Of a stretch of DNA of 42,381 bases, positions 29,221 through 33,707 are shown piece by piece. Source of the DNA: a virus; the IMG/VR virus record IMGVR_UViG_3300031616_000002; one strand, 5' to 3'. A program made the translations under genes and the position numbers. The stretch's first letter is position 1. Every line of letters begins with the position of its first letter. Under the pieces are notes generated by a model. That model was not told the DNA's origin. It was given only the letters and a program-made list of their open reading frames with translations, and made no database searches.

Positions 29221-29256
29221 GAGACCCCGGAGCGATAACCATCTTCCGGGGCCTCT
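29221..29256. terminator. Hairpin between convergent transcription units
   Basis: GAGACCCCGGA...TCCGGGGCCTC imperfect stem just after the late operon; weak U-tail. Confidence 0.5.
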
Positions 29257-29302
29257 GTATGACATAGCGTCAATGCCGTCGTTGTGCGCGCTAGCACATT
29301 TA

Positions 29303-29600
29303 AGAATGCAGGTCAGGCTAATCGATGCGAGCTACCACTGCTCCACCCCGGCATGGAGTGCCAGGGACCGGGTTCGAACCGGCGACCTCATCGTCGGAGC
29401 CCACATTCGGTCGATCTAGTACGCGACGGTAATACTGATTCTGGAGCGATAGTCTGAGCTTCGTGCGCTATCCCTTGTCGGGCTGCCTCTGCCAGTTGGG
29501 CTACCGGGGCACGGGTACCCCGGGCAGGACTCGAACCTGCACTTGTTTAGCGCGGTGAGCTTCAACTTCAACTTCAGCTTGCGCTCCATGCGTACCCTAC
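29303..29600 (-). ncRNA. Putative structured RNA with two circularly permuted tRNA-like domains
   Basis: Minus strand: T arm GCAGG-TTCGAGT-CCTGC, loop-closed acceptor CCGGGGT/GCCCCGG and D arm (29484-29542); T arm GCCGG-TTCGAAC-CCGGT, acceptor CCCTGGC/GCCGGGG and D arm GAGC-AGTGGTA-GCTC (29323-29393); nested closing stems. Confidence 0.8.
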
Positions 29601-29624
29601 CCTAAGGCAGGGAGATTGGGGGTA

Positions 29625-30356
29625 TCAGGCGAAGAGGTAGCCGAATACAACATCGCCGATGTGCTTGTCGGTCACCTCGGCGGCGTTCGCGCGCTCGCGA
29701 GCGAACTTGACTGCCTGGTGCAGCTTCTCGACGCGCTCGACGAGCTCGTTGACGCGCCTCGCCGGGAGGGCGCCGGAGAACTTCACCAGCGTCCAGTACC
29801 CGACGGTGATGTCCTCGGTGTAGACATCGACCTGTGCCGGGTGCTTCTCGGTGGCCTCGGCCTTGACGTGGTTCCGCATCACCTTGCGGGTGCGGTGGCT
29901 CTTCGTCGGCTCGGTCTTCCAGGTGTCGCTGGCCTCGTCGCGGTGCCAGGCCTCGGCGGGGTCCAGGACGGGGAGCTTCTTGACGAAGGTCGACAGGGAC
30001 ACCAGCTCCTTCTCCAGGAAGAGCAGGTAGGTCACGGGCACGCCGGTGATGAGCGTCTCGCCATCGACGATGATGTCGGCCTTGGCGGTGCAGTTCGCCC
30101 AGTCCTTCGTCGCGGTGACGTCGAACAGGCGCGTGAGTGTGGCTGCGGTGTCGGTCAGTACCTGCTCGGCCGTGACCTGGACGCGAAGCGACTCGGGGGG
30201 GAGTGTCTCACCCTCCTCGTCCTTCGGCTGGTAGGTGCGTGTCAGTCCAGCCAGCAGCTGGGGCTTCTGGACCTGGTGGTGTGCTGCCGTGAGGTTGGCG
30301 AAGGATGTGGCCTTCACGCCCTTCTCGATAGCGATGATCTGGTTGAGCTTGGTCAT
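29625..30356 (-). CDS. Hypothetical protein (243 aa), directly upstream of the double tRNA-like RNA
   Basis: GAAGGAG RBS, high GC3 codon usage, MTKLNQIIAIEKGVK...TYLLFLEKEL...FSGALPA...VKFARERAN; no function I can assign. Confidence 0.88.
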   Translation of the reverse strand: MTKLNQIIAIEKGVKATSFANLTAAHHQVQKPQLLAGLTRTYQPKDEEGETLPPESLRVQVTAEQVLTDTAATLTRLFDVTATKDWANCTAKADIIVDGETLITGVPVTYLLFLEKELVSLSTFVKKLPVLDPAEAWHRDEASDTWKTEPTKSHRTRKVMRNHVKAEATEKHPAQVDVYTEDITVGYWTLVKFSGALPARRVNELVERVEKLHQAVKFARERANAAEVTDKHIGDVVFGYLFA

Positions 30357-30480: not shown

Positions 30481-30552
30481 AGGTCCCTAGCTCAGCGGTG
30501 GAGCATCTCCCTGATAAGGAGAAGGTCACTGGTTCAAATCCAGTGGGACCTA
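30481..30552 (+). tRNA. tRNA-Ile(GAT)
   Basis: Acceptor AGGTCCC/GGGACCT, D arm GCTC/GAGC, anticodon arm TCTCC-CTGATAA-GGAGA, T arm ACTGG-TTCAAAT-CCAGT; no encoded CCA. Confidence 0.92.
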
Positions 30553-30561
30553 CGAGGACGT

Positions 30562-30686
30562 CGTGGAACTACCGTGCCGGAGTGGCCAAACGGTCCGGTT
30601 GAGGGCGATGGTCCGCCCGAGACCGGCGTGACGCCTGCGCGGCCATGCGCACTCGTTAACCGTGGGTTCGAATCCCACCGGCCACG
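30562..30686 (+). ncRNA. Aberrant type-II tRNA-like RNA without a normal anticodon loop
   Basis: D arm GCCG-GAGTGGCCAAA-CGGT, T arm GTGGG-TTCGAAT-CCCAC, long variable arm; acceptor has a 5-nt bulge; anticodon stem CCGGT/ACCGG is extended by a GGGCG/CGCCC hairpin. Confidence 0.65.
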
Positions 30687-30697
30687 CGTCCTTTCCC

Positions 30698-30780
30698 GGA
30701 AGGTCTCCCATTGGAGAGGGAACCGGTCCCGAAAACCGGAGCGCTGCAAGGCGTTGGGGGTTCGAATCCCTCACCTTCCG
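30698..30780 (+). tRNA. tRNA-Ser(CGA), non-canonical (C8, C33)
   Basis: Acceptor GGAAGGT/ACCTTCC plus G73, anticodon arm CCGGT-CCCGAAA-ACCGG, long variable arm, T arm GGGGG-TTCGAAT-CCCTC. Confidence 0.8.
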
Positions 30781-30785
30781 CTCGA

Positions 30786-30857
30786 TCCCCGCTGGTGTAA
30801 GTGGCAGCACAGCCGCCCCTGGAGTGGCTAATCGAGGTTCGAGTCCTCGGCGGGGAG
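30786..30857 (+). tRNA. tRNA-Gln(CTG), C33 variant
   Basis: Acceptor TCCCCGC/GCGGGGA (U1-A72), anticodon arm GCCGC-CCCTGGA-GTGGC, T arm CGAGG-TTCGAGT-CCTCG. Confidence 0.85.
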
Positions 30858-30928
30858 CCCACTCTTGACGTCGATGCGGTTGTTGGATAGCTTCGATCCT
30901 GCACACCTCAGGATGCACTGTGCCCGTC

Positions 30929-30988
30929 GCACCCCCGCCTCACCGCCGTCCCTCCCCAAGGGCAGAGCGGTGGGGCGGGGGTGTTTTG
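30929..30988 (+). terminator. Intrinsic terminator of tRNA cluster
   Basis: 18-bp GC-rich stem (30929-30946 / 30967-30984) followed by TTT. Confidence 0.75.
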
Positions 30989-31049
30989 TCGTTTCCGGCA
31001 GGTCACATCATGATCAATAGACTTTACCTCTACTTGACCCTTTAGTCTG

Positions 31050-31078
31050 TTGCACACTTCAGGTGGAGTCGGTAGTGT
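31050..31078 (+). promoter_or_regulatory. Housekeeping-sigma promoter for the Y-RNA array and Ro60 gene
   Basis: TTGCAC-N17-TAGTGT; predicted start (~31085-31086) coincides with the first base of unit 1's closing stem. Confidence 0.75.
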
Positions 31079-31085
31079 CGTGCTT

Positions 31086-31171
31086 GTTCGGAGCTGCGAA
31101 GGACACCACGGCTACTTCACCCTTCTAAGATGATATGTCGCCGTATCGTTCAGAACTTGTTCTCTTCGGAC
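31086..31171 (+). ncRNA. Y-RNA-like unit 1 (short, no T/D arms)
   Basis: Terminal stem GTTCGGAG/CTTCGGAC; GCTGCGAAG, TACTTC, CTTGTTCT; loop CTTCTAA. Confidence 0.75.
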
Positions 31172-31190
31172 CTACTGAACAACTGATCTT

Positions 31191-31270
31191 GGTGCTTGCT
31201 GCGAAGGAAACCCCGGGTACTTCTTTTGGTGAAATCACCCCGGAACATTCCATACGAGTTCTCAGGCATC
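31191..31270 (+). ncRNA. Y-RNA-like unit 2 (short)
   Basis: Terminal stem GGTGCTTG/CAGGCATC; GCTGCGAAG, TACTTC, GAGTTCT; loop TTTTGGT. Confidence 0.75.
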
Positions 31271-31282
31271 GTACAACTGAAT

Positions 31283-31431
31283 GCAGCCCTAGCTGCGAAG
31301 ACCAGACATACTTCCCTATAAACCGGGGGTCGCGGGTTCAAGTCCCGTCAGCGGTGCGACTTCCGCTGTAACTCAGTTGGCTAGAGTACCGGTCCGAAAA
31401 AGAGTTTGGTCGACTCTGTTCTCTAGGGTGC
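31283..31431 (+). ncRNA. yrlA: Y RNA unit 3, YrlA-like with permuted tRNA domain
   Basis: Stem CCCTAG/CTAGGG; GCTGCGAAG, TACTTC; T arm GCGGG-TTCAAGT-CCCGT, loop-closed acceptor CAGCGG/CCGCTG, D arm ACTC-AGTTGGCTA-GAGT; CTGTTCT. Confidence 0.85.
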
Positions 31432-31578
31432 TCCATACTTCCCCGGCCGCGCGACACCCCCAGAGAGGCGCGCGCGTGGCCGGGGAACACCACGGGGGTC
31501 CGAACCGGCGGCTCGGCGACGGCCCCTCGGCGCACCGGTGACGCAGGGTGATCCGGTCCCGGTGCGCCATTAAGCTTC

Positions 31579-31714
31579 ATCATCCGCTGCGAAGACAAAC
31601 GCCTACTTCACTCACAATGGAAAAGACCCCGGTTCGAATCCGGGCCATCGACCTCGGTCGGCGGTAGCTCAGCGGCCTAGAGCATACGGCGCTGTTACCT
31701 TGTTCTCGGATGAT
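31579..31714 (+). ncRNA. yrlA: Y RNA unit 4, YrlA-like with permuted tRNA domain
   Basis: Stem ATCATCCG/CGGATGAT; GCTGCGAAG, TACTTC; anticodon-like TTCA-CTCACAA-TGGA, T arm CCCGG-TTCGAAT-CCGGG, acceptor CCATCGAC/GTCGGCGG, D arm GCTC/GAGC; CTTGTTCT. Confidence 0.85.
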
Positions 31715-31792
31715 AGACTTCCCCGGCTGCCTCAAACCCAGGGGTGGGGGCGGCGGTCGGGGAGGACCGGCCGATCAACAATCGAATAGCTT

Positions 31793-31873
31793 ATCTTCCG
31801 CTGCGAAGGCACCGTCGGGTTACTTCCTTGAAATGAAATACACCCGCAATCGCCGCACCTGTTCTCGGAAGGT
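31793..31873 (+). ncRNA. Y-RNA-like unit 5 (short)
   Basis: Stem ATCTTCCG/CGGAAGGT; GCTGCGAAG, TACTTC, CCTGTTCT; loop CTTGAAA. Confidence 0.75.
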
Positions 31874-31883
31874 ATTATGCAGC

Positions 31884-31998
31884 GATGTCCGCTGCGAAGG
31901 ATTACGGTTACTTCAGGTTCGATTCCTGGAGGCTCCACTAACCCGGGGCCTCCCGCGCCATGGGGCGCAACCCGTAAACCGCACCGTTCCCGGACGTC
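31884..31998 (+). ncRNA. Y RNA unit 6 with degenerate tRNA-like domain
   Basis: Stem GATGTCCG/CGGACGTC; GCTGCGAAG, TACTTC; T arm CAGG-TTCGATT-CCTG, stem GAGGCTCC/GGGGCCTC, GCGC/GCGC mini-arm; CCGTTCC. Confidence 0.75.
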
Positions 31999-32000
31999 AC

Positions 32001-32038
32001 GCAGAACCCCTTCCGCCGTGCCCTGGAAGGGGTTCTGC
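32001..32038 (+). promoter_or_regulatory. 14-bp hairpin sequestering the RBS of the TROVE gene
   Basis: GCAGAACCCCTTCC / GGAAGGGGTTCTGC, ending 1 nt before ATG 32040. Confidence 0.7.
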
Positions 32039-32039
32039 T

Positions 32040-33707
32040 ATGTCGAAGTTCAACGCCCCGAGCGCCCGCACGACCTATCCGCCGCGCGGCCCGAGCACCA
32101 CCACCGGCCGCACCACCACCTATGAGGGCGGCATCGCTTTCACCCGCGACACCATGTCCGAGCTGGCGCTCCTCGCCGTGACCAACATGGTCGGCGAGAA
32201 GACCTTCTACGAGTCGGCGGCGGACCGCGATGCCCGCTTCAACGGGCTGGTGCGCTCGGTCGCGGTGGGGTCCGGGGCGCAGGCGCTGGCCTTCGCGACC
32301 TGGCTGCGCGGCGAGGGCAACATGCGGTCGGCCTCGATCACCGCTGCGGCGGAAGGGGTCCTGGCGCGCTTGGCCCATGCCGCGAGCGGCCCGCAGGCCC
32401 TTCCGGAGCTGAACCCGGCGTCGGGGATCAACCGCAAGCTGACCGATGCGGTGCTGCAGCGCGCGGACGAGCCGGGTGAGCTGCTCGGCTACTTCGCCAC
32501 GCACTACGGTCAGCAGGGCGAGCGTGCGTGTAACGGTATCGCGCCCGCGCCGAGGATCCCGATGCCGGTCAAGCGCGGTGTCGCCGACGCGGTGCAGCGC
32601 CTGTACACCGAGCGCACCTACCTGAAGTGGAACTCGGCGGCATCGAAGGGCTTCCAGTTCGCCGACATCATCGAGATGGTGCACCCGAAGCCGCGTGACG
32701 CGCGGCAGGCTGCGCTCTTCAGCTACATCCTGGACCGTCGCCACGGCCGGGACCACAAGATCCCGGCGACGCTGCCACTGCTGCGCGCGCACGCCGATCT
32801 CATGCATGTCCCTGTAGCTGATCGGCGTGAGGTGCTGCGGCGGCCGGATGCGGCGGAGGTGCTGAACCGGGCTGGGATGACGTGGGAGTCTCTGGCCGGG
32901 TGGCTGCAGGGCCCGATGGATGCGGAGGCTTGGAGCGCGATCATCCCGAGTATGGGTGCGATGGCGCTCGTGCGGAACCTGCGGAACTTCGACGAGGCGG
33001 GTGTGCCGGATTCGGTGGCGGCGCTGGTCGCGGCGAAGCTGGCGGATCCGGAGGAGATCGCGCGGTCGCGTCAGTTCCCGTACCGCTACCTGTCGGCGTA
33101 CCGTATGGCGCCGTCGCTGCGGTGGGGGTATCCGCTGGAGCAGGCTCTTGCCCTGGCGTGCGCGAACATCCCGCTGCTGCCGGGCCGCACTCTGGTGCTG
33201 GTGGACACGTCGAGCTCGATGCGCGGCCAGGTTTCGGACAAGTCGCAGATCCGGCATGTCGATGTGGGGGCGCTCTTCGGTGTGGCCCTGGCGGCTCGCG
33301 GTGCGCAGGTCGATCTGGTCGGCTACGCGAACGGCACCTTCGTCCATCCGCTGGCGCGGGGCGGTTCGGTGCTGAAGCAGGCCGAGGACTTCACGAAGCG
33401 CATCGGCGAGGTGGGGCACGGTACGGAGACTGGCCTGTCGCTGCGGACGCGCTTTGCCAAGCATGACCGTGTCGTGGTGGTCACGGACGGGCAGGCCTTC
33501 CATGACTGGAGCGGCGTGTCCGTGTCGGACTCGATCCCGGCGGACGTTCCGATGTTCGGGGTGAACACCACGGGCTACGCCCAGACCTCCCTCGACTTGT
33601 CGCGGCGGAACCGGTACGAGATCGGCGGCTTCAGCGACAGGCTCTTCACGATGGTGGACCTGCTGTCGCGGGGCCGGGATGCCAAGTGGCCGTGGGAGGT
33701 TGAGTAG
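32040..33707 (+). CDS. rsr: Ro60-related TROVE plus vWA domain RNA-binding protein (555 aa)
   Basis: TTYEGG.AF, ELALLAVTN, TFYE, NMRS, RADEPGE, MALVRNLRN, SRQFPYRYLSAY; vWA MIDAS LVDTSSSM, GTET and VVVTDGQ; true start MSKFN at 32040, not 31710. Confidence 0.95.
   Translation: MSKFNAPSARTTYPPRGPSTTTGRTTTYEGGIAFTRDTMSELALLAVTNMVGEKTFYESAADRDARFNGLVRSVAVGSGAQALAFATWLRGEGNMRSASITAAAEGVLARLAHAASGPQALPELNPASGINRKLTDAVLQRADEPGELLGYFATHYGQQGERACNGIAPAPRIPMPVKRGVADAVQRLYTERTYLKWNSAASKGFQFADIIEMVHPKPRDARQAALFSYILDRRHGRDHKIPATLPLLRAHADLMHVPVADRREVLRRPDAAEVLNRAGMTWESLAGWLQGPMDAEAWSAIIPSMGAMALVRNLRNFDEAGVPDSVAALVAAKLADPEEIARSRQFPYRYLSAYRMAPSLRWGYPLEQALALACANIPLLPGRTLVLVDTSSSMRGQVSDKSQIRHVDVGALFGVALAARGAQVDLVGYANGTFVHPLARGGSVLKQAEDFTKRIGEVGHGTETGLSLRTRFAKHDRVVVVTDGQAFHDWSGVSVSDSIPADVPMFGVNTTGYAQTSLDLSRRNRYEIGGFSDRLFTMVDLLSRGRDAKWPWEVE

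Follow-up and report, generated by a model that had tools for sequence, protein, structure and literature searches.

A gene for a DUF7873 (PF25283) protein and an RNA of ~350 nt encoded downstream of it form a conserved two-part cassette carried by numerous phages and soil bacteria, one copy of which lies on the minus strand of the IMG/VR virus record IMGVR_UViG_3300031616_000002 (42,381 nt; hereafter the window). Within the literature and the Rfam 15 release searched, this gene-RNA system matches no described family. Across the full texts accessible to the search, with subscription journals mostly outside its scope, DUF7873/PF25283 is not named and the RNA is not described. The supplementary files searched from PMC10690425 held no match, and a fragment could be among the 10,006 candidates of that paper. 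A comparison with Rfam had been suggested in an earlier note on this DNA, and no Rfam 15 family reached threshold for the RNA.

The gene content of the window is that of an actinobacterial tailed phage or prophage: genes for terminase, portal, capsid, and tail occupy 398-26529, and replication-type genes plus Lsr2 lie beyond 35400. The DUF7873 gene points away from a block on the plus strand that contains tRNA genes, YrlA-like RNA, and Ro60/TROVE (Table 1). The 243-aa open reading frame reported in the earlier note was confirmed, yet its product, described there as unknown, matches Pfam DUF7873 over residues 1-242 (E 4.9e-114, 380.5 bits versus a cut-off of 27); searches of NCBIfam and PHROGs with it returned no match. 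The predicted structure, a confident model (pLDDT 89.5), combines a bundle of helices with a long beta-hairpin at residues 151-194. The basic residues R40, R155, K158, R161, R208, and R220 are conserved at 90–100%. Neither a catalytic nor an RNA-binding fold was identified in it. Many Streptomyces copies (L003, L004, L007, L008, L012, and others) are apparently leaderless: a -10-like hexamer precedes their GTG start by a few bases.

Table 1. Features of the cassette and its surroundings in the window
Feature	Position	Strand	Basis
DUF7873 (PF25283) gene, 243 aa	29625..30356	-	Pfam match, structure model, homologue alignment
-10-like hexamer	30386-30381	-	Upstream of DUF7873 gene, read by eye
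Shine-Dalgarno-like GAAGGAG	30368-30362	-	Upstream of DUF7873 gene, read by eye
Hairpin just 3' of stop codon	29595..29612	-	Similar ones in many homologues
P1 helix GAGCG (29586-29582) / CGCUC (29448-29444)	29444..29586	-	77% paired, 63 RNAs
Four A-R-R-Y-U-N hexamers	29557..29580	-	5' of domain 1
Permuted tRNA-like domain 1: T arm, 7-bp loop-closed acceptor, tRNA-Leu-like D arm	29540-29485	-	Comparison
Two hexamers, UCGCUCC heptamer, two more hexamers	29431..29461	-	Repeat comparison
Possible outer helix CCGUCG (29429-29424) / CGACGG (29281-29276)	29276..29429	-	Complementary here, by eye in several homologues
Second arm	29289..29421	-	Two covarying helices and conserved internal loop
Second-arm helix	29421-29416/29294-29289	-	89.5% paired, both sides vary in every pair, 63 RNAs
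Second-arm 9-bp helix	29408-29400/29312-29304	-	86.4% paired, both sides vary in every pair
Permuted tRNA-like domain 2	29383-29329	-	Covarying Levitt pair, 29384 with 29338
One more hexamer after domain 2	29319-29314	-	Within second arm
Terminal hairpin with GGNUA loop	29221..29255	-	68/82 homologues versus 1/83 upstream controls
Context outside cassette: divergent tRNA genes, YrlA-like RNAs, Ro60/TROVE gene	30481..33707	+	Rfam, ARAGORN, Pfam, NCBIfam
Ro60/TROVE gene	32040-33707	+	Context of window

Relatives of DUF7873 made up 7,405 of 8,000 scored candidates, and the family comprises 2,692 protein clusters at 50% identity. We compared 182 loci drawn from three sources: bacterial matches (the best 80 of 572), viral matches (12, then the best 80 of 156), and annotated phage records (10 of 75). 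The best 80 bacterial matches are mostly from Streptomyces (the protein of Streptomyces venezuelae ATCC 10712 is CCA60217.1), and the hosts or names of the annotated phages include Arthrobacter, Gordonia, Rhodococcus, Pseudanabaena, Microcoleus, Vibrio, Rhizobium, Ralstonia, and Klebsiella. The cultured phages Racecar, Phendrix, and NiceHouse carry both the gene and the RNA. The earlier note had proposed looking in the 3' flanks of homologous genes, and the RNA is kept there: with matches counted at 40 bits or above, a profile built from 63 of the 163 distinct loci placed it no more than 300 nt downstream of the gene in 148 of the 163, including 80/80 of the best 80 bacterial matches. This tally is not independent, because the profile came from 63 of the same loci. 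In five further loci the RNA lies 387-691 nt downstream; L160 has an intact RNA upstream of its gene, L088 has one on the strand opposite to the gene, the match in L098 is doubtful, and four loci have weaker matches (< 40 bits). No profile match was obtained in 3 of the 163 (L099, L129, and L161), and hexamers with one tRNA-like domain can be seen by eye in L099. Among the upstream control regions, only that of L160 scored with the RNA profile. Of 301 genomes sampled evenly across the phylum, 7 contained the gene; the core RNA pattern occurred in 6 of the 301, all among these gene carriers and each ~250 nt or less from the gene, and the RNA of the seventh was present by profile. No neighbouring gene was common to more than 26 of the best 80 bacterial loci.

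Because the RNA is nearly always directly downstream and co-oriented, we considered whether it might be a cis-acting 3' element of the DUF7873 mRNA, with tRNA-like processing or stability signals and repeats serving as an autoregulatory site. Single contigs from RNA libraries of relatives span gene and RNA (on L007, at 80% likeness), and they are a weak indication of transcription, where DNA carry-over is possible; such contigs carry no strand, end, or level information, and do not prove one transcript. The positions in L160 and L088 favour action in trans, and together with the five more distant RNAs and a conserved structure that exceeds the needs of a processing signal, they make a purely cis role distinctly unlikely.

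The folding energy of the region alone is no more stable than that of shuffles (z -0.61); therefore, the case for a structure rests on the comparison of homologues. In a first screen of 85 non-redundant RNAs, of which 76 were used and 9 dropped as truncated, interrupted, or poorly aligned, mutual information was strong for the T, acceptor, and D stems of both domains and for two long helices. Structure statistics were then taken from an alignment of 63 homologous RNAs carrying both tRNA-like domains. The model pairs 85.3% of cells in this alignment versus 60.3% when shuffled (0 of 500 as high) and 41–50% when slid. T stems are paired in 99.4% of cells, acceptor stems in 99.5% and 99.8%, and D stems in 96.8% and 92.9%, which bears out the two permuted domains of the earlier note, each running from a T arm through a loop-closed acceptor to a D arm. 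The Levitt pair of domain 2 covaries (UA 46, CG 17), and that of domain 1 is conserved (UA 60, CG 2, one unpaired). Decayed tRNA genes or integration-site relics without RNA function might be expected from tRNA-derived sequence in a phage with no excess folding energy, but this reading is largely refuted by the 59 of 62 model pairs that vary on both sides, by the covarying tertiary pair, and by an architecture fixed across phages of distant hosts, and we give it next to no weight.

The helices around the domains fared unevenly. The GAAUGU/GCAUUC stem of the earlier note is real and extends to the 9-bp second-arm helix, next to which a conserved internal loop sets AUCGAC opposite UUAAAUG. Of TGGAGCG/CGCTCCA, the GAGCG/CGCUC core is retained as P1, which encloses repeats and domain 1 and has moderate support, being only slightly above independence in another test. 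Three more of its stems, GUACGC/GCGUAC, GCGCUA/UAGCGC, and GGGCU/AGCCU, could form in this copy but have no comparative support: 39.9% of their cells are paired, versus 41.0% in shuffles, and the last also overlaps the covarying 9-bp register. In the same note's list, CGAUG/CAUCG reached 48% pairing in a region of variable length that is possibly misaligned. The outer helix CCGUCG/CGACGG is paired in only ~41% of cells across the 63 RNAs and is hence unproven. The hairpin next to the stop codon is likely the 5' boundary of the RNA. At the other side, the RNA runs past the end at 29303 given in the earlier note, with a covarying helix closing at 29289 and a conserved terminal hairpin beyond it that is likely the 3' end of the transcript. 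This GGNUA-loop hairpin could be a separate recognition motif; it is retained even where tRNA genes lie between it and the RNA. Domain 1 was skipped by the profile match in 22 of the best 80 of 572 bacterial loci, its absence being seen directly in seven, and the Leu-like domain is therefore dispensable. In L113, a ~600-nt protein-coding-like insertion splits the RNA inside domain 1 (~90-690 nt past the stop). Part of the RNA region in Klebsiella phage LPKP23 (L102, 3845-3928) is annotated as tRNA-Stop(tta), likely a misreading of the element.

The hexamer repeats come in runs: four 5' of domain 1, two on each side of UCGCUCC, and one or two after domain 2. The profile of 296 units shows A in 287, R in 282, Y in 280, and U in 293, with A and U having been required in half. 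No pairing covariation was detected between hexamers in 74 RNAs, where values stood at the level of independent columns, and a later test gave 64% paired. The units can be read as Lys/Arg-Leu codons, with translations such as KLKLKLKL and RLRL and an in-frame ATG in this copy, so that an alternating beta-strand peptide might be encoded. Coding tests on the hexamers gave no sign of coding selection, and the details run against such a peptide: Arg codons are CGN 1 and AGR 104 in the units versus CGN 839 and AGR 72 in adjacent genes, Leu and Phe follow UU equally (39 versus 38), an in-frame start occurs in 26 of 74 RNAs, and frames between runs are random-looking (20/27/27). We consider this encoding scarcely credible. 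A sequence kept at a fixed period without pairing or coding would resemble repeated protein-binding sites, and the hexamers are the core of the RNA and its likeliest protein-binding element.

To characterise the domains as tRNA mimics, we parsed the 85 RNAs into 65 domain-1 and 71 domain-2 modules, at least six of the seven acceptor pairs being required. NCCA is encoded after the 7-bp acceptor in 26/65 and 28/71 of these, respectively, so the earlier note's statement that CCA is missing holds for this copy, which has ACCC and ACUC instead, but not for the family; more than half of all domains, both of this copy included, are without an encoded CCA. Acceptor identity bases vary across homologues. 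A73 is present in 47/65 domain-1 modules, the domain-2 discriminator is mixed (U 42, G 22, A 7), and a G-U at 3-70 was seen in 1/65 and 0/71. Among ARAGORN calls in the loci, the D-arm patterns of domain 1 recur only in tRNA-Leu genes (7 and 8 of 46), and the D arm of domain 2 is generic class I. Leucyl-tRNA synthetase largely ignores the anticodon. As the earlier note had stated, there is no anticodon loop: the anticodon-stem position runs on into the RNA body, and ARAGORN made no call on the element.

Several of these features would suit a translation-engaging particle, in which charged ends enter stalled ribosomes or donate residues and DUF7873 acts in an SmpB-like way. The permuted layout, 7-bp acceptors, frequent NCCA, and Leu-like domain 1 all fit, as does the placement of phage cassettes among tRNA genes in 5 of the 10 annotated loci inspected (Racecar, Phendrix, NiceHouse, Keelan, and D517), once adjoining a tmRNA gene. 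The placement among tRNA genes also counts for the decoy particle proposed below; against that particle, the surroundings of the Streptomyces chromosomal copies are not obviously defence or tRNA contexts. Two-piece tmRNA likewise has a permuted domain, an acceptor loop whose removal could leave a CCA end, and a protein partner, and its members carry an alanine acceptor with G3-U70 and A73. The DUF7873 RNA, in contrast, has two domains, no fixed alanine or other acceptor identity, no tag frame, and repeats that fail coding tests; ARAGORN and Rfam gave no tmRNA match on the element, and DUF7873 is unrelated to SmpB by the libraries searched. We judge this particle rather unlikely.

YrlA (RF02553), the bacterial Y RNA group bound by Ro60/Rsr, shares with the DUF7873 RNA the T arm, acceptor, D arm order, a compensatory Levitt pair, and the lack of an anticodon loop; also alike are the RNase P-type 7-bp acceptor of the Mycobacterium smegmatis YrlA and an RNA gene adjoining a protein gene (PMC4201824). 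RNase P cuts the M. smegmatis YrlA, and CCA is added to it (Chen et al. 2014, PMC4201824), which makes the same fate plausible for the domains here. The DUF7873 RNA differs from YrlA in its size (~350 nt with two modules versus ~110-150 nt with one), its hexamer repeats, and its linkage to DUF7873 instead of Ro60. That the element might be a divergent Y RNA with the neighbouring Ro60 as its partner was suggested by the YrlA domain order, by a fragment of Rfam RF02553 over domain 1 (26.2 bits, gathering threshold 69), and by the Ro60 gene ~2.4 kb away in the window, on the opposite strand to the cassette. On eight further DUF7873 loci, however, Rfam 15 gave nothing at threshold over the element, YrlA included. 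The Ro60-binding motif of Y RNAs is GNCGAAN0-1G near the 5' end (PMC4201824); it was found there in 5/85 RNAs, and GNCGAAG was absent from the minus strand over 29221-29612, in line with the earlier note's remark that the Y-array motif is missing. A Ro60 gene occurred within the 3-4 kb flanks of 2/182 loci, and 14 of 40 cassette-bearing genomes had no TROVE match, absence being no proof in an incomplete genome. A Ro60-bound Y RNA is thus highly improbable; the DUF7873 RNA resembles YrlA in its tRNA module and, as far as sequence comparison can tell, falls outside the Y RNAs. The earlier note's central idea of a conserved tRNA-elbow mimic that belongs with the adjacent gene rather than with Ro60 stands with corrected details, its observations being partly confirmed and its interpretation partly supported; its picture had missed the hexamers, the frequent NCCA, the Leu-like D arm, the optional domain 1, and the 3' extension.

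Apart from the window, only two of the fetched loci have a Ro60-like gene nearby, L162 (611-1717) and L170 (5890-6723). In the window, a GCTGCGAAG...TACTTC unit array upstream of Ro60 (31090-31920, +) has no exact GNCGAAG match in its motif. A YrlA match inside it covers 31301-31413 (+) but, with 37.4 bits, stays below threshold, and more permuted tRNA-like pieces occur around 31625-31680 (+). A tRNA-like gene at 30570-30690 (+), with a class II D arm, a normal T arm, and a long insertion at the anticodon-arm position, received no ARAGORN or Rfam call.

Our preferred reading, held tentatively, is that DUF7873 and its RNA form a ribonucleoprotein, with subunits on the hexamers and two tRNA-like ends displayed as decoys. 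DUF7873 would probably bind the hexamers through its basic beta-hairpin at about one subunit per repeat, and several subunits would coat the unpaired six-nucleotide repeats as an oligomer. We lean slightly towards RNase P and CCA addition opening the acceptor loops to CCA ends. Less confidently, the particle might titrate or sense factors that attack, or survey, the acceptor ends and elbows of tRNAs, and such a decoy or sensor role would protect translation during phage infection or stress. Having no anticodon, the particle cannot decode. The evidence examined points to no particular target of the decoy. The Cas7 backbone, which steps along crRNA by six nucleotides, offers an analogy only, in the six-nucleotide period of the RNA and the long beta-hairpin of the protein. 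Foldseek rows for DUF7873 versus Cas7 were weak and not significant (E 6e-3, TM 0.14, rmsd ~30 A), Pfam gave no match to the RRM-derived RAMP fold, and unlike Cas7 systems, the cassette has no spacers, has repeats conserved in sequence, and lies in loci where cas genes are absent nearby.

Beside the translation-engaging particle, the main rival to the decoy ribonucleoprotein is a toxin-antitoxin or guard module, in which the protein would be harmful alone, the repeat RNA would restrain it, and damaged tRNA-like tripwires would release it. Such logic resembles that of type III toxin-antitoxin systems, which also pair one protein gene with a repeat-bearing RNA in a compact cassette, and it agrees with a self-contained unit found at varied sites, with its patchy spread (7/301 genomes), and with a gene rarely seen without the RNA. 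In type III systems, the RNA lies upstream of the protein gene, whereas the DUF7873 RNA is downstream and has 6-nt repeats; Pfam, NCBIfam, and PHROGs gave no nuclease or toxin family match, toxin RNases included, L129 and L161 seem to be without the RNA, and lytic phages carry the cassette. We regard the guard module as unlikely.

A second protein family may be related. DIP1984 (NF038048, PF20935, PDB 3kdq) has 153 aa and, unlike DUF7873, is missing the long hairpin; the 243-aa open reading frame gave no match to NF038048 or PF20935, and homology between the two families is suggestive. DIP1984 genes have a conserved ~230-nt non-coding motif downstream, with GCAC-type repeats and in several cases a T-arm-like hairpin (L190, L191, L195, L200-L204, and L206-L214), and all three marker motifs were present in 17/25 loci. 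Neither Rfam, on the downstream regions scanned, nor the DUF7873-RNA profile matched this motif. An AT-rich conserved stretch lies 3' of the DIP1984 gene in L196 and L218, and four genomes (G001, G272, G285, and G298) have both DUF7873 and DIP1984 cassettes, at different places. The DIP1984 gene and its motif are possibly a sister system.

A joint reading, doubtful at present, would make DUF7873 and DIP1984 two branches of an unrecognised superfamily that polymerises on its own repeat-bearing RNAs. The DUF7873 branch, present in streptomycete chromosomes and in phages whose hosts span at least three phyla, would form a filament with chargeable ends, holding two RNase P-opened, CCA-bearing tRNA ends, one of them leucine-specific, and this filament would act either on translation or on defence enzymes that attack tRNAs. 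The cassette represents a large class of RNAs with strong covariation and a protein of their own, apparently missing from Rfam 15 and from the literature searched. If the proposals above are true, it would show that the permuted tRNA module has a second use that does not depend on Ro60, would supply a function for DUF7873 and perhaps for DIP1984, and would bear on why phages carry tRNA-like genes.
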